From: a virus
Length of the DNA: 64,000 bases
Virus record (IMG/VR): IMGVR_UViG_3300001473_000094
Coordinates: 4,310-68,309 of that record
Strand: one strand, 5' to 3'
A model generated the notes under the pieces. It ran no database searches. It was not told the DNA's origin and was given only the letters and a program-made list of their open reading frames with translations. Shown piece after piece: positions 3,388 through 47,155 of the stretch. Every line of letters starts with the position of its first letter. Positions within the stretch are counted from its first letter, which is position 1. Position numbers and translations under genes: made by a program.

Positions 3388-4791
3388 TTAGTTGGGGAAG
3401 CCCCGCCGGATCGATGAGGCGGAAGCGCCGGGGCGATAGCCACGGGCGACGAGGACGCGCATCACCTCAGGGGGGATCGAGGTCCAGCCGCCCCAGTTGG
3501 ACTTGGGGTTGAAGGAGGAGGGAACCGAGGACCGCATGTCGAAGTGGACGTGGCCATCATAGATGCCGACGCCAGTGGCACCCGCTCCGACATGTGCGTC
3601 GACGAGGCGCACGAGTTCCTCCATCGAGGATGGGCGAGCCACGTCAGCAGCGAGGGAACCCGAGCCGTTGCGGCCAGTGTGGTAGGAGTGCTTGGCCACC
3701 GTAGGCCGGTTTGGGTTTCCAGAAAAACGAATGCGATCTTGGTGAGATTGGGATCGATAGCCGGACGTGATCGAGGTGTCGGAGCCAATTTGGCCAGCGG
3801 CCCTGCGCAGTACGTCGGCGAAGCCTTCGTCGAAGTTGAGGGAGACATCGTCACGGGCAGCTACGAAGCCGAAACCGGAAGCTTCCAGTGCACCGTCGCG
3901 GCCAAGGTAGGTGTCTCCCGTTTGCGGAGGATTGGGTTCCGCCGGAGCGAATGACTCGTTGGGAAGGGACTCGCTGTAGGGCGAGACGTAAGGCACGAGA
4001 CTGTCGGACGAAGGGGTCAACCATTCTGGAGAAGGAATGGGATCGGGAATTGATGCGACAGCCGGCATGCCTCGGGCTCGGCGCGTGCTCTTGAGACCTT
4101 TGCCAAGGATGTTGCCTGCTTCGATAAAGGCGTTACCCGTGGCGTTGCCATAAGCTGGTGCGAGTTCGACGCCGCCAGAGGCGGCGGCGGATGCAACGCC
4201 GCCGCCGGGACGACTGGATGTGTCGCCCGACGCCCCCCGAAAAGGGGCGGAGGGCGAAGCCCGACCATCATCCTCAAGGCCATCGATGGCGAGAGAATAC
4301 TCTGGGGCACCGTCATAGCCGGGCGCGTTGCCGTGGTAGTGGACGGATTGGCCAACTCCCAAGCGTTGGGCACCCGAGTCGATCATCGGGGTTACCCACG
4401 ATTGGAGGTTGGACCGGTCGGAGAAGTTGGGGTTGGCGTAGTGAAGAGAGTTGCCGACTACGGAGGGGGCTCCGTTCGCGCGGGACGCAAGGTGGGAGGA
4501 GACCAATGACATCACGTTCTGTGATGCCGAAGGCGCCTCTTGGACAGAGCCGTAAGGGTCAAGGCGGCTCGGGCCAGTGATCTTGGAGAAAGCGCGGCGC
4601 TGGTTCATGACGCCTGTGGCCGTGTCGGGGAAGCCGTCCGTGGCCATGCGATTTGTGATCGTATCGACCACGGCGTGGACCATGCGTGCGTATTCCTGAG
4701 GGTCTTGACGGCCAATGGAGGCGGGAACCTCGGTCTCGACGACACGGGCGATGAGGTCGATGTCTTGAGGCGTCAGGGAAATCTTGCGCAT
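3388..4791 (-). CDS. Two-domain peptidoglycan hydrolase: SleB/Hydrolase_2-like N-terminus plus Peptidase M15-like C-terminus
   Basis: N-terminus DIDLIARVVETE...AVVDTITNR...AFS...LHYANP. C-terminus ITSGYRS...HSYH...AADV...GVGIY..HVHFD. Confidence 0.8.
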   Translation of the reverse strand: MRKISLTPQDIDLIARVVETEVPASIGRQDPQEYARMVHAVVDTITNRMATDGFPDTATGVMNQRRAFSKITGPSRLDPYGSVQEAPSASQNVMSLVSSHLASRANGAPSVVGNSLHYANPNFSDRSNLQSWVTPMIDSGAQRLGVGQSVHYHGNAPGYDGAPEYSLAIDGLEDDGRASPSAPFRGASGDTSSRPGGGVASAAASGGVELAPAYGNATGNAFIEAGNILGKGLKSTRRARGMPAVASIPDPIPSPEWLTPSSDSLVPYVSPYSESLPNESFAPAEPNPPQTGDTYLGRDGALEASGFGFVAARDDVSLNFDEGFADVLRRAAGQIGSDTSITSGYRSQSHQDRIRFSGNPNRPTVAKHSYHTGRNGSGSLAADVARPSSMEELVRLVDAHVGAGATGVGIYDGHVHFDMRSSVPSSFNPKSNWGGWTSIPPEVMRVLVARGYRPGASASSIRRGFPN

Positions 4792-40614: not shown

Positions 40615-40907
40615 TTGGCCTGCTCCTTGGCCTGCTCCTCGCGCATGATTTTGGCCACGGCCGCTCGGGTCTGGCTGGCGATCAATTCCTTATCGACCTT
40701 ACGTTCAAGGACAGCGAGGCGTTCGGAGAACTGGTGGATCGCGGCATCGAGCGCGACCGCGAAGTCGGGCGTACTGGCCAATTGCTTTCTCAGATCGGCA
40801 ATCTTGTCTCGGCTCGCCTCAAGATCGTTACGGAGAGCGATGGATTCCTGTTCGAGTTTGTAGAGCCGGTCCTTGTCCGAGATTGCGTTCTGTCGCGTCT
40901 TGCTCAT
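40611..40907 (-). CDS. Small coiled-coil protein
   Basis: ATGA-coupled on both sides. Confidence 0.65.
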   Translation of the reverse strand: MSKTRQNAISDKDRLYKLEQESIALRNDLEASRDKIADLRKQLASTPDFAVALDAAIHQFSERLAVLERKVDKELIASQTRAAVAKIMREEQAKEQAK

Positions 40908-42835: not shown

Positions 42836-43039
42836 TTACCGCCCAGTCTTGCAGTCCGGGTCTGCGGGGAGAGCGAACACTTGGTGAGATTCGTACCGCT
42901 CACGAAGAGACTCGACATGCTGGCGCGTACCTTGGCCAAGATCGTTGAGTCGGCCGGGGCCAGTGGTCGCGGCATACTCAAGGTTGAGGCGTTCAGGGGT
43001 CCGGTCGGGTCTGTCGACTGTAGGGATTGGCTTTTTCAC
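42836..43039 (-). CDS. Hypothetical protein
   Basis: Fills the TerL-portal gap and is preceded by the late motif. Confidence 0.45.
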   Translation of the reverse strand: MKKPIPTVDRPDRTPERLNLEYAATTGPGRLNDLGQGTRQHVESLRERYESHQVFALPADPDCKTGR

Positions 43040-43081: not shown

Positions 43082-45724
43082 TCAGTCGCCCCAACCCCGT
43101 CGTCCGGTCACGTCGAGCTGCTTGGCCAGTGAGCGGCCGTAGAGACCTTCGAGCTGCTCGATGGGCTTCTTGGCCAATGAGGCGAGCTGGAAGTCTGCGA
43201 ACTGAGCTTCCATCATCTCGGCCGTGATAGAGGTTCTGGAAAGCTCGTAGACGAGGAGCGAGAACGCATCGACCTGATCGTCGAAAGCGGCGGCCGGGAA
43301 CTGCTCGATCTCGGCAAGGAAGTCCGGCAGCCACTCCGTGTGCATGTTCGGATTGGTGGAGTTCTTGTGCGGCAGGAAGACGCGGCCGCCCTCGACCAGC
43401 GGAAGGACTGAGGAAAGGTGGGTGACCTTGTCGCCCGGCCAGCGGCGCGCAATCACTGACAGGCCGCTCTCCCGACGCAGCTCTTGGACGAGTGACTGCC
43501 CAGAGGCGTGGTCTTCGACGATGATCGCGCGAAGGCCACGGCCACGCAGGCGGTTGTTGAGGATGATAAGGCGCTGCTTAAGTTCGGGGAGCTGCCACTT
43601 GCCCCGGACCATGTTGAGGAGGTGGATGTCGCCTTTGAGGGTGATGCCGCCGATGGCCAAGGCCGAGTAGTCGTTGCGGGTTCCGGACTTGTAGGCGGTA
43701 TCGGCCGCGATGAGGAGCGAGTGGTAACGCTGAAGGAGCGGATCGAAATCCTCAGGGAGCCACTGCCACCATGCGCGCTTGAGCATGTTGCCGCCCTCGA
43801 TGAGGGGCTGCTGCTGGTAGAGAGCGGCGAAGTCACGCTCCGAGCGAGACTTCTGTTTGAGGAGGTAGCGGACATCGAAGCGCTCCGGCCAAAGGGCGCG
43901 ATACTGGCGCTTCTCCGGCTCTGCGGGATCGGTCGGCAGTTCGGTGAGCCCTTGGTAGTAGACATGGTGCCACTCGCCTGCGGCCCACTCGGGGAGCTTC
44001 ATGAGGCGGCCAGCGGGGTCGTCAGGGTGCCACCGCGTCAGGGTCATCAACTGGATGGGTGGCGTGCCGTCCTCTTCCGGTTCGAGGCGCATCCACAGCG
44101 AGCCGGTGATGAAGTCCCAGACGTTGCGGCGGATGGTGGGGGACTCAGCGTCAGGGCGGGATTTGATAGGGTCGTCGATGATAAGGCAGTTGTGCGCCAG
44201 CACATAAGTCGGATGAGCACCGGGTTCGGCGAAGCCGCCGGTGGGGAAACCGCCAACAAAGAAGTTGGCTGTATCGGCCACTTGAATGTCAAAGACCGGC
44301 TCGCGGCGACGGCCCGAAGCACTGGTGACCATGCAAGGGCCAAGTGGTCCGAGCGATGCACTATGGTGTGGCACCGGCGGCACAAGGAAATCAGATTCGT
44401 CGCGCAGTTGTTCGACTTGGTCAGATCGATGTGGTGGACATCGTGGGTCGGGGACAGCGCGAGACACAGGAAACACTCGTGGCCGTCGCGCGCTCTGATT
44501 GCCTTGGCCAAAGGGCGCCAGTGTGGCGCGTACTTCTGGCGCGTTGCGCCGTTGCGATGCCGTGGGTTGAACGGCCCGCTCATGCGAAGCGAATGGAGCT
44601 TGCGCGCGCATTCTTTCGAGCAGGTCACCGCATGCCTGTTGAAGGGCTGAAACCGCACCTTGCAGACCGGGCACGTTTTCTCGCGGAGACGCTGAAGCGT
44701 GACGGGCTTGTGCGCGTCCCAGCACGCCTTCGTGCAGTACAGCCGATCTTTGGTGGCGTGGCGTGGGCCGGTAAACTCGTTGCCGCACCCCTTGCACTGT
44801 TTCGTAATCGCCGCGCGCTTGACGTTTCGGGCGCCTCTGCACGCTCTTGAGCACATCGTCTTGCGAACGCTGGGGTAGGGGACGCGGAACGCCGCCCCAC
44901 AATGCTGACAGATGCGGTCTCTGCTGCGCGCGTTGGCCTCGGCTAAGACCGATTGGTGAGCTGTACTGTCCACCCGCAAATTCCCTCATCGGCAGATAAA
45001 GCCGCGACTTGATGTCGAAGAGGGGGTGGTCCGACGTTGAGGTCAATTTTACGCCGGTTTGCAGTTTGTAATCAAGGACTTCGGCCATCTGAGAGCGAGT
45101 GGCAACGATCTCTTTGATCACGGTTTCGTTGGTGCTGTGGTCGAACGATACGACCTTGTCTCCGGCGCGGAGCTGGGAGATCGCGCGCGGGCCGTCCGGG
45201 GTGAGGACGAGTGTGGCGGCCGCAAAACAATTGGCCGGACGGCCAGAAGTCGTGCCGTTCAGGCCAAGGGCGTAGTAGGCGCCGCGCTGTTTCGTCTTCC
45301 ACGTGTCGGATGCGCGGCTGTCGGTGGACAACCTGAAGTCCGGGAAGACCTGTTTGAAGCGAGGGTTGGTGACAATGGACTTGGTTTCGCCGCCAAAGTC
45401 GGTGGCCAAATCGGAGTTGTATGCTGAGACCATCGTTTTGCGCGTGGCCTTCCGGCCCATCAGGTAGGCAGGAAAGAGAATGGTGCCGTAATGCGACTTG
45501 GCGTGGCGCGGCGGCATGTTGATCAGGAGGTTGTAGACCGGCTCGCCTGTGGTGGGGTGGACGAGTGCGCGCTTTTCGAGCTGGTCCAGCAGGTCGATGA
45601 AATCGAGCTGAAACTTCGGGAAGGTCCGTCCGGGAAACATGTACTGGATGAACGCCGAGTAGGACGTACTGGCGGCAGCCATCAAGGCGGCCCTGCGGAG
45701 GATTTCCTCTTCTGATTTGGCCAT
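43082..45724 (-). CDS. terL: Terminase large subunit with an intein (880 aa precursor, 533 aa after splicing)
   Basis: Walker A NMPPRHAKS, Walker B LIIDDP, TRWHPDD, ALYQQQP, ADTA, DDQVDA. Confidence 0.93.
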   Translation of the reverse strand: MAKSEEEILRRAALMAAASTSYSAFIQYMFPGRTFPKFQLDFIDLLDQLEKRALVHPTTGEPVYNLLINMPPRHAKSHYGTILFPAYLMGRKATRKTMVSAYNSDLATDFGGETKSIVTNPRFKQVFPDFRLSTDSRASDTWKTKQRGAYYALGLNGTTSGRPANCFAAATLVLTPDGPRAISQLRAGDKVVSFDHSTNETVIKEIVATRSQMAEVLDYKLQTGVKLTSTSDHPLFDIKSRLYLPMREFAGGQYSSPIGLSRGQRAQQRPHLSALWGGVPRPLPQRSQDDVLKSVQRRPKRQARGDYETVQGVRQRVYRPTPRHQRSAVLHEGVLGRAQARHASASPRENVPGLQGAVSALQQACGDLLERMRAQAPFASHERAVQPTASQRRNAPEVRATLAPFGQGNQSARRPRVFPVSRAVPDPRCPPHRSDQVEQLRDESDFLVPPVPHHSASLGPLGPCMVTSASGRRREPVFDIQVADTANFFVGGFPTGGFAEPGAHPTYVLAHNCLIIDDPIKSRPDAESPTIRRNVWDFITGSLWMRLEPEEDGTPPIQLMTLTRWHPDDPAGRLMKLPEWAAGEWHHVYYQGLTELPTDPAEPEKRQYRALWPERFDVRYLLKQKSRSERDFAALYQQQPLIEGGNMLKRAWWQWLPEDFDPLLQRYHSLLIAADTAYKSGTRNDYSALAIGGITLKGDIHLLNMVRGKWQLPELKQRLIILNNRLRGRGLRAIIVEDHASGQSLVQELRRESGLSVIARRWPGDKVTHLSSVLPLVEGGRVFLPHKNSTNPNMHTEWLPDFLAEIEQFPAAAFDDQVDAFSLLVYELSRTSITAEMMEAQFADFQLASLAKKPIEQLEGLYGRSLAKQLDVTGRRGWGD
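44047..44979 (-). CDS. Zn-ribbon HNH endonuclease encoded out of frame (+1) inside the intein
   Basis: Three CxxC...CxxxC ribbons, then IRARDGHECFLC...DVHHIDLTKSNNCATNLISLCRRCH. SD-like GAGGG at 44983-44987 precedes TTG 44979 / GTG 44973. Confidence 0.85.
   Translation of the reverse strand: MRVDSTAHQSVLAEANARSRDRICQHCGAAFRVPYPSVRKTMCSRACRGARNVKRAAITKQCKGCGNEFTGPRHATKDRLYCTKACWDAHKPVTLQRLREKTCPVCKVRFQPFNRHAVTCSKECARKLHSLRMSGPFNPRHRNGATRQKYAPHWRPLAKAIRARDGHECFLCLALSPTHDVHHIDLTKSNNCATNLISLCRRCHTIVHRSDHLALAWSPVLRAVAASRSLTFKWPIQPTSLLAVSPPAASPNPVLIRLMCWRTTALSSTTLSNPALTLSPPPSAATSGTSSPARCGCASNRKRTARHPSS
44189..45229 (-). mobile_element. Intein (347 aa) inserted just before the TerL Walker B motif
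   Basis: PAN|CFAAATLV (block A), LTSTSDHPLF (block B), VFDIQVADTANFFV (block F), LAHN|C (block G, +1 Cys). Confidence 0.92.
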
Positions 45725-45729
45725 GGGCG

Positions 45730-45990
45730 TCAGTGGCTCTTTCGTGACGCCGCCAGGTGGGAGAGGTAAGAGCGCTGGATCGCGTCAGCGAGGTTCTTGT
45801 CTCGGGCGTGCATCGAGATGACCTTGAGGACGTGCGAGCGAAGTGCCTGCTTGCGGCGATGGCGGGGGACGGACTCAAGATCGAAAGAGGCCACGGCCTC
45901 GGCGAAGCCGCGCAGGGACATGTCGGAGGGCACCCGGTTGCCTCCGTCTTCAGTCGACTTGGTGGAGCTGCGATTGAGGATGTTGCTCAC
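45730..45990 (-). CDS. Hypothetical protein
   Basis: GTGA overlap with the upstream gene; SD GAGG. Confidence 0.55.
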   Translation of the reverse strand: MSNILNRSSTKSTEDGGNRVPSDMSLRGFAEAVASFDLESVPRHRRKQALRSHVLKVISMHARDKNLADAIQRSYLSHLAASRKSH

Positions 45991-47111
45991 TTTGGGGCGT
46001 CCTCGCGCTTGTTGCGGTTTTTGATGGCCTTGGCCGTGTTGATGATCTCCTCTTGGGTCATCTCGTCCGGATCGCGATCTGAGGGACTGACAGAGCGCGT
46101 GATGTTCACCGACGCCGACAGTGTCGGCACGGTGTGGCGGAGAAGGGCGAGGAAGAGTGAGGTCTGGTCTTTGGACCAGACGGCCTCGCGCACCGCGCCG
46201 GCGCGCGTCGGTTTCAAGACATCATTGGCTGTGTCGAGGTGAGCCAGAACGACTTGCGCAGCCTTCTGGGTGATCGGATTGTCGAGAGCGCCAATGGTCA
46301 TGTGAGGCGCGGGAAGCGCGCCGTGGTGCTTGGCCTCCTCTTCTTTGAGGGGCGCGGGTGGTCCGCCAACGTCAGCTTTGGAATCGTGGGTCAAGACAAG
46401 CCTCCGGACGTGTTCGACGAGGTGGCGCGGGTGGGGGACCGCAAAGCCGCAGACGTTGAGTGCGAACCGGCGAGAGACATCGCCGGCGAGGACGAATGGG
46501 GAGAAAGAGGTCGAGCGAGATTCGACGATGCGAAAGGTCTTGTCGTTCCCTCTCGGGTACATGTGGTGGTGAGGAACGAGGTATCGGAAGACCTTCGCCG
46601 ACGGGGGGAGCACGACGTAGGGCGAGCGGTAGAGAGTGGCCATGTCTTGGACGAAGAGGATGAGGGCCAGCCCACAGCTACGGGAGCAATAGGCGTGCCG
46701 GGAGACGACGGAGCGAAGAGGGGCAAAGCCAGTCGAGCCGCAGCCAAGGCAGCGAACAGGTTTGACTGCGTGGGTGCCAGGAACGAGGTGGGGAGAGGCG
46801 TAGTTGAAATGGACCGGGACGCGCTTGCCACGCTTACCCTTGGCCCCCGGCTCGGATGAGCTGAGATAGACGGTGTGGGGCCTTCTTGTCGGCAGATCGG
46901 CGTCAGTAAACGGCCTTCGGTCGTTATGCGCCACCGGGCCGAGAAGGATGTCGCGATAGCTGTTGGGGTGCAGGATCGGGATGTCTTGGTGAGACCAAAG
47001 GATTGCACGCGCCATCTTGGCGTAGATGGGCGGGAGGATTCGGCCAACGGGAATGGCGATGTTTGCAAGTTGGTCATACCCGGCCGTTCGAAATGAGGGG
47101 GAAACCGGCAT
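45987..47111 (-). CDS. Hypothetical protein, possibly containing the terminase small subunit
   Basis: First gene of the late operon, with CLGC...CSRSC and a helical C-terminus ending DPDEMTQEEI. Function inferred from position only. Confidence 0.5.
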   Translation of the reverse strand: MPVSPSFRTAGYDQLANIAIPVGRILPPIYAKMARAILWSHQDIPILHPNSYRDILLGPVAHNDRRPFTDADLPTRRPHTVYLSSSEPGAKGKRGKRVPVHFNYASPHLVPGTHAVKPVRCLGCGSTGFAPLRSVVSRHAYCSRSCGLALILFVQDMATLYRSPYVVLPPSAKVFRYLVPHHHMYPRGNDKTFRIVESRSTSFSPFVLAGDVSRRFALNVCGFAVPHPRHLVEHVRRLVLTHDSKADVGGPPAPLKEEEAKHHGALPAPHMTIGALDNPITQKAAQVVLAHLDTANDVLKPTRAGAVREAVWSKDQTSLFLALLRHTVPTLSASVNITRSVSPSDRDPDEMTQEEIINTAKAIKNRNKREDAPK

Positions 47112-47155
47112 GGCCAAATTTTAGATGGGCGAGGGGTAGGGTGTCGTCCGGTCAA

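Follow-up and report, generated by a model that had tools for sequence, protein, structure and literature searches.

A nested, out-of-frame HNH endonuclease in the terL intein of brucellaphages was noted as early as 2015 (Virol J, PMC4422536). A preprint from 2025 describes actinophage inteins with the endonuclease in a separate frame, including endonuclease VII-like types (frame 3) as well as antisense LAGLIDADG and VSR-like types, and names the terL intein of phage Clown with 385 amino acids (aa). An out-of-frame LAGLIDADG endonuclease has also been described for a cyanobacterial dnaX intein (Phillips, DeSimone and Gogarten, bioRxiv 10.64898/2026.09.14.751524, crediting Gorbalenya 1998), and hidden HNH genes of the ShiLan type were reported in phage DNA methylase genes (Genes 2025, PMC11855218). 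In the accessible portion of Kelley et al. 2016 (PMC5050341) out-of-frame endonucleases go unmentioned. Our literature search for out-of-frame endonucleases in terminase inteins returned the 2015 brucellaphage paper only, and a search for intein HNH domains in an alternative reading frame returned nothing. Here we analyse a 64,000 nucleotide (nt) stretch of viral DNA (IMG/VR record IMGVR_UViG_3300001473_000094, positions 4,310 to 68,309; hereafter the window), in which the gene for the large terminase subunit, terL, contains an intein with an HNH nuclease in the +1 frame. The locus very probably represents a genuine intein-based homing element in terL with a separately made +1-frame HNH protein. 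An earlier note on this DNA implied a novel architecture; this was overstated, as the brucellaphage layout has been in print since 2015 and separate-frame intein endonucleases feature in preprints of 2025–26. The layout is real, widespread and under-annotated but already described, and the window extends a known kind by one member without introducing a new principle.

The terL open reading frame (ORF) covers positions 43082–45724 on the minus strand, as do all features below at their respective positions. Its 880 codons encode a precursor of N-extein, intein and C-extein that matches the terminase large subunit family phrog_38 (1.9e-87) and Pfam Terminase_6C (residues 732–823). The N-extein (45230–45724, 165 aa) ends in ‘TSGRPAN’ and is followed by a class-1 intein of 347 aa (44189–45229, precursor residues 166–512), giving the N-terminal junction ‘RPAN|CFAAATLV’ with 45229 as first intein base. 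Blocks F and G read ‘VFDIQVADTANFF...YVLAHN’ up to the last intein base, 44189, whereupon the C-extein (43082–44188, 368 aa and stop) starts with ‘CLIIDDPIK’. The intein is thus located directly before the Walker-B sequence ‘CLIIDD’, and all class-1 residues are there, i.e. C1, the block B TxxH as ‘TSDH’, the terminal ‘AHN’ and C+1. The intein-less relatives P0002 and P0004 read ‘GRPANCLIIDDP’ without interruption across the insertion point; therefore, the insertion is precise and the predicted spliced TerL comprises 533 aa. As the host gene is essential and the intein blocks are intact, we infer that the precursor undergoes protein splicing.

Hint-type Pfam matches to the terL product were limited to residues 164–239, among them Hint_2 at residues 166–200 (29.4 bits at a cut-off of 28.4), and no Pfam match was obtained across the central part. 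The same partition is seen in an AlphaFold2 model of the terL-frame intein calculated from a 15-sequence alignment. Residues 1–85 and 300–347 are confident, with a block-mean predicted local distance difference test (pLDDT) score mostly above 74, and the pLDDT drops below 50 in residues 88–185, 211–260 and 262–298. The N-terminal splicing half (44975–45229, intein residues 1–85) holds C1 and block B with block means of 84–97, and the C-terminal half (44189–44332) holds blocks F and G and the terminal HN with block means of 65–95. Between them, the terL-frame read-through of the HNH gene (44336–44968, intein residues 88–298) is rich in R, P, Q and A and is modelled as a low-confidence linker joining two confident Hint halves. 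Foldseek searches with the confident part of the model gave 32 PDB matches at E ≤ 1e-3 (best E 5.8e-6, probability 1.00), and those listed are all inteins (including mini-inteins), bacterial intein-like or hedgehog Hint domains.

The +1-frame ORF (44047–44979) comprises 310 codons from TTG 44979, with GTG 44973 as alternative start, and is offset from terL by 1 mod 3. It terminates 142 nt inside the C-extein (44189 minus 44047). A PHROG search matched 19 families, 17 of which are annotated as HNH endonuclease (best phrog_1271, 2e-22). The protein carries three zinc ribbons, an HNH zinc site and an HHI..N..NL..LC..CH motif. In an alignment of 21 sequences, the cysteines of the three CxxC...CxxxC ribbons (44542–44910) are invariant or at least 90% conserved, and H180, H181, N193, C167, C170, C198, C201 and H202 of the catalytic motif ‘VHHID...N...NL..LC..CH’ are invariant. 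Altogether, 18 columns are invariant and 12 nearly so, and the window keeps every one. A model from the same alignment reached a pLDDT of 83.6. As a whole it drew no Foldseek match at E ≤ 0.001, the zinc-ribbon part attracting zinc-finger arrays, and the fold comparison was done at the level of the catalytic domain instead (44302–44541, model residues 145–224). This domain aligns to solved HNH domains and shows the beta-beta-alpha-metal fold; the structural match scores are 9.6 for EcoKMcrA (root-mean-square deviation 2.2 Å, 77 residues aligned), 8.0 for Cap5, 7.8 for IscB, 7.3 for GVE2 HNH and 5.0 for T4 endonuclease VII.

These results bear out the anatomy put forward in the earlier note. 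The terL frame is indeed open over 880 codons, with every splicing block in place, and its R/P/Q/A-rich centre lacks a recognisable domain as judged from the missing Pfam match and the low pLDDT. The claim of an HNH nuclease with three zinc ribbons in the +1 frame agrees with the PHROG families, the invariant residues and the fold, and both the stop inside the C-extein and the Shine–Dalgarno (SD)-like GAGGG before TTG/GTG (44987–44983) were found.

Whether two overlapping frames are open by coincidence was addressed by keeping the HNH core protein fixed and redrawing synonymous codons from the phage's own extein usage in 3000 trials. The terL frame stayed free of stops in a fraction of 0.011 for the window (1.13% of 3000), 0.003 for Gordonia phage Clown and 0.019 for Ralstonia phage RS-CA1, and in 0 of 3000 trials each for Brucella phage Tb and Synechococcus phage S-EIVl. 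A terL-frame stop requires a T-ending HNH codon and, next to it, a codon beginning with AA, AG or GA. In the window, T-ending HNH codons precede such codons in 0 of 37 cases as compared to 22 of 148 elsewhere; pooled over the five phages, the counts are 0 of 220 at risky positions and 131 of 759 elsewhere. In each of these five phage lineages, both frames are open to an extent beyond chance expectation.

The question of which frame is under selection was approached by sorting the differences between relatives according to terL codon position, position 1 of terL being position 3 of the HNH codon. Eight pairs from four clades were compared (nucleotide identity of roughly 66% or more across some 1400 nt or more; the pairs are not independent). 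Over the exteins, differences at terL positions 1, 2 and 3 amount to 900, 643 and 2221, whereas the HNH-core overlap shows 619, 322 and 273. The closest pair, L006 and L034, gives 56/15/238 in the exteins versus 54/17/7 in the HNH core. This shift of substitutions from the third terL position (exteins) to the third HNH position (overlap) indicates that the HNH frame is the translated and selected one; in relatives, the substitution pattern points to purifying selection on the HNH protein within the overlap and on TerL outside of it.

Information on the lineage of the window itself comes from a relative from another study (X3/X4, about 87–91% identity), in which the intein has the same length with a net change of −3 nt. 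Among the differences listed, 40 of 118, those in the C-extein fall on terL positions 1, 2 and 3 in a ratio of 2/0/20 and those in the C-terminal part of the intein in a ratio of 4/2/12. Because differences over these two parts sit mainly at terL position 3, the HNH ORF downstream of about 44300 reads as an unselected run-on tail. With the window HNH as query, the relatives retrieved were all distant and free-standing (three loci in viral contigs, three in a set with one genome per species and 23 in metagenome contigs), and a scan of viral contigs with the C-extein for close relatives gave none.

The layout recurs far beyond the window. A tblastn search of phage records with the +1-frame protein returned 53 records (61 at a looser cut-off), including 41 Brucella phages. 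The terL of Brucella phage Tb (NC_019446) bears the annotation ‘intein present’ and contains a nested coding sequence at offset 1, annotated ‘putative HNH endonuclease’. Clown, S-EIVl and RS-CA1 harbour an unannotated +1-frame HNH in a terL intein at the same site. The window protein shares 30–36% identity and the Cys/His pattern with these four (tblastn 1e-12 to 1e-14). A profile scan of IMG/VR yielded 41 loci. The best 28 (L009–L036) all show a spanning ORF of 503–1205 aa with canonical intein blocks and the HNH at +1; the remaining 13 are free-standing HNH genes, a class to which L040 and L046 were assigned (open frames of 239 and 117 aa, offset 2, no Hint motif). After collapsing duplicates (L016, L019, L020, L022, L026, L027, L028 and L029) and including the window, all of 25 distinct loci have the +1 offset, at a G+C content ranging from 0.37 to 0.70. 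For L010, L014, L017, L023, L024 and L030 the intein boundaries were not detected automatically, and these loci enter the frame count but not alignment A3. Brucella phage EF4 (L008, MT002975) was excluded from all counts, its terL being annotated in three pieces. Several neighbours of terL in this record are likewise annotated in two or three pieces, and errors in the record sequence are probable.

Given that in-frame inteins with a related HNH do exist, as in the terminase-like protein P0231, it could be argued that the window holds an ordinary in-frame HNH intein altered by two compensating frameshift errors in sequencing or assembly. Contigs from a second run of the same sample are, however, identical over 44066–44585, 44631–44783 and 44884–45099 without any indel, which covers both frame-switch zones; this comparison was made on contigs, and the best-matching contig set may itself be the source of the window. 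The identical 880-aa protein is recorded on four contigs, and the +1 offset common to all distinct loci comes from independent projects, including the 41 Brucella phage records. Moreover, T-ending HNH codons are missing exactly where terL-frame stops would form, which errors cannot yield. A pair of compensating sequencing frameshifts is excluded by the shared offset, the second-run contigs and the codon avoidance, leaving an artefact with a next to negligible probability. The dual-coding reading proposed in the earlier note is supported: both frames are open beyond chance, selection is frame-specific in relatives, and both open frames are conserved in homologues at every distinct locus.

Among the described systems, Brucella phage Tb (Perisivirus Tb/Pr, gp07/gp08) is alike in insertion site (‘...N|C[LV]IIDDPIK’), strand and +1 offset, in the zinc-ribbon and HNH layout (36% identity, tblastn 1e-12), in the unstructured terL-frame read-through, and in an SD-like motif 3 nt before the start. 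By contrast, the host terL genes are distant, the G+C content is 0.50 in Tb and 0.62 in the window, and the HNH ORF of Tb stops within the intein whereas that of the window runs on into the C-extein. A 15-residue insertion between blocks F and G belongs to the window intein. According to the 2025 preprint, the actinophage inteins share with the window a splicing domain in the host frame, a same-strand endonuclease in another frame, frequent occurrence in terL and a structureless read-through, but the window nuclease appears to differ from their endonuclease VII-like type in frame, domain order and best structural matches. As far as described, the dnaX intein also combines an overlapping endonuclease in another frame, under purifying selection there, with coexisting mini-intein and intein-free alleles; unlike the window, it resides in a cellular gene for a different host protein and encodes a LAGLIDADG rather than an HNH enzyme. 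The ShiLan type resembles the window in an out-of-frame zinc-finger HNH within a host ORF that stays open, with a GTG internal start proposed. It has no splicing domain and the read-through stays in the host protein, whereas the window nuclease is flanked by a complete Hint domain.

The canonical in-frame arrangement is represented by P0231 (1277 aa, AT-rich, terminase-like, E 5e-45). It contains two inteins, each with a related in-frame zinc-ribbon HNH; Pfam assigns Intein_splicing to residues 14–456 and HNH to residues 350–396, and the end reads ‘...IIFHN|CSFIDD’. Hint halves flank a related zinc-ribbon HNH in both cases, but the nuclease of P0231 is part of the intein polypeptide and that of the window occupies a separate frame.

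How the HNH protein would be translated can be narrowed down from the sequence upstream of its first zinc ribbon. The SD-like GAGGG at 44983–44987 is followed after 3 nt by TTG 44979 and after 9 nt by GTG 44973, and overlaps an upstream TGA in the HNH frame. In Tb, an AGGAG precedes the annotated GTG of the nested HNH by 3 nt. Internal starts recur within sub-clades, namely an ATG five codons before the first CxxC in L011, L012 and L017 and, in L006, L018 and L034, a TTG at a distance of 12 codons. Programmed ribosomal frameshifting from the terL frame, with formation of a fusion of N-extein, N-terminal intein half and HNH, would be a different route to the same domain. Ahead of the first zinc ribbon, 24–134 codons of the HNH frame are open, in most loci with an overlap with the N-terminal splicing half; an SD-like motif is missing from many loci, and the database protein P0207 reads from the N-extein and the N-terminal intein half straight into the HNH frame. 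Since some ATG, GTG or TTG is expected by chance in at least 24 open codons, the presence of start codons does not discriminate between initiation and frameshifting. The fusion would, however, waste terL translation, the TGA located two codons ahead of TTG 44979 confines any shift in the window to a short stretch, the starts in the sub-clades are conserved, and P0207 is a single record that may reflect an error or a broken allele. Frameshifting is therefore regarded as very improbable, and internal initiation is preferred. P0207 itself (605 aa) ends in an HNH-frame tail one base off the usual layout, which could stem from a damaged allele or a sequencing mistake, or represent a fusion that occurs naturally.

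Additionally, there is a weak hint of an internal promoter at 45075–45046. The promoter-like sequence TTGATT-18-TAAAAT (45046–45075) is found within the N-terminal half of the intein, about 70 nt upstream of the HNH start; one such site was found in 3.2 kb compared to 0.4 expected. The codons involved are minor ones in this gene of 62% G+C, with GTA accounting for 2 of 67 Val, AAA for 11 of 48 Lys and TTG for 9 of 122 Leu codons.

The distribution of the element among relatives is sporadic. An intein at the site of the window occurs in 8 of 120 listed relatives. The relatives P0002–P0009 have 545–553 aa at 63–70% identity, and the two inspected, P0002 and P0004, lack the intein at an extein identity of 68%, whereas intein-bearing relatives reach an extein identity of only 47–53%. 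At the same site, near-identical terL alleles carry inteins of 348 aa (P0012), 174 aa (P0013) and 131 aa (P0011). This looks like a decay series, with the partial deletion P0013 and the mini-intein P0011 as apparent deletion derivatives of P0012. Between L011 and L012, 61 of 594 sites (10%) differ in the HNH core but 447 of 1176 (38%) in the exteins; the lower divergence of the HNH core suggests a recent horizontal transfer of this intein. Furthermore, L010 as well as L011, L012 and L017 combine the same intein and +1-frame HNH with other motifs after the junction (‘HN|CDDPHN’ and ‘HN|CDILVRDE’), indicating that the element moved between distinct terL families. From the sporadic distribution, the deletion derivatives and the modest divergence of the HNH core between L011 and L012, we infer homing, i.e. 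cleavage of the intein-less allele followed by gene conversion.

The same observations can be held against the view that, in place of or in addition to homing, the nested HNH acts as an accessory nuclease of the terminase needed for packaging. Such a functional association with the terminase was proposed in the 2015 brucellaphage paper, citing HNH proteins of packaging machines (PMC4422536), and the element resides within terL in every case found. Yet P0002 and P0004, the two nearest terL relatives fetched, have neither intein nor HNH, the deletion derivatives retain the splicing domain and lose the HNH, the nuclease has relatives that stand alone in unrelated contexts, and the divergence between L011 and L012 fits a recently transferred element. 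An essential packaging role thus appears highly improbable, slightly more so than frameshifting, and homing is retained as the preferred function.

Several points weigh against the reading of the locus as a functional homing element with a separately made nuclease. Start codons and SD-like motifs are not conserved over the 25 loci, several of which lack an SD-like motif, and the GTG following the SD-like motif in S-EIVl is GTA in its relative L034. The promoter-like site is a single match to 9 of 12 consensus positions. The Pfam HNH models (PF01844, PF13392) did not give an HNH family at E ≤ 0.1 for the window protein; Pfam reported NinG (16.9 bits) and Zn_ribbon_3 only, each below the cut-off. 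Hence, the HNH assignment rests on PHROGs, alignment and fold. The phase test covers pairs of relatives and not the window copy. Finally, the 15-residue insertion FPTGGFAEPGAHPTY between blocks F and G (44204–44248), which has no counterpart in 14 other aligned inteins, is unusual and might impair splicing. In the intein of P0015, this loop holds an insertion of 9 residues. Judging from the differences to the X3/X4 relative, which fall mostly on terL position 3 there, the insertion in the window seems to be translated and tolerated.

The insertion also feeds into the notion that the window copy is a fixed and decaying remnant, in which the intein still splices whereas expression or activity of the HNH has been lost. 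Stages of this kind are predicted by the homing-cycle model, and there are shortened relatives. On the other hand, the invariant and nearly invariant residues are all intact in a stop-free ORF, the avoidance of T-ending HNH codons is complete, and the X3/X4 relative at about 90% identity retains the full length. We consider a remnant unlikely, albeit the least so of the alternatives weighed here, and favour an element whose nuclease would still be active.

Our proposal for this element can be summarised as follows. A class-1 intein sits directly before the Walker-B cysteine of TerL, its middle third containing a complete zinc-ribbon HNH gene on the same strand at +1. Ribosomes following the terL frame would cross the HNH DNA and produce a roughly 210-residue unstructured linker between the Hint halves, and protein splicing would then remove the whole intein to give the 533-aa TerL. 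The nuclease would be made as a separate protein, most likely by internal initiation at TTG 44979 or GTG 44973 behind GAGGG, either from the terL mRNA or from a transcript of a putative internal promoter. It presumably cuts intein-less terL at ‘...PAN|CLIIDD...’, and repair would copy the element in. Splicing, homing, expression of the HNH, its start codon and its target are predictions.

With respect to the immediate surroundings, the ORFs flanking terL (45730–45990, 45987–47117 and 42836–43039) gave no PHROG match, and neither a small terminase nor a second HNH was recognised among them. The ORF at 40904–42832 matches head–tail adaptor and portal families.

The family to which the window belongs is large. 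At E ≤ 1e-30, the HNH profile retrieves 659 cluster representatives. Of the top 150, at least 35 carry a +1 read-through tail of intein blocks F–G, as compared to 0 in a shuffled control. The tail-motif count is an ad hoc heuristic that undercounts, since inspection by eye finds the tail in many more of these 150. As to annotation, gene callers list the locus as an 880-aa ‘terminase’ and overlook an entire nuclease gene, and in surveys of inteins the central region may be taken for a degenerate or unknown type of endonuclease domain. The locus is also a clear-cut example from nature of two overlapping frames that are selected differently, one merely for freedom from stops and the other as a protein, and it separates the nuclease from the splicing protein by which the host gene is rescued. 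Because every distinct locus is at +1 over a wide range of G+C content and none of 28 intein-embedded loci is in frame, overprinting is conceivable as a stable, selected design of the whole intein family rather than a transient accident, a generalisation that we regard as doubtful at present. If true, a frame of its own, and possibly a promoter of its own, would permit early production of the nuclease at a low level, independent of the late and abundant TerL, and the terL-frame read-through would be a mere disposable spacer. The in-frame P0231 would then allow for comparing both states and for examining the model of ‘splicing first, endonuclease invades later’.

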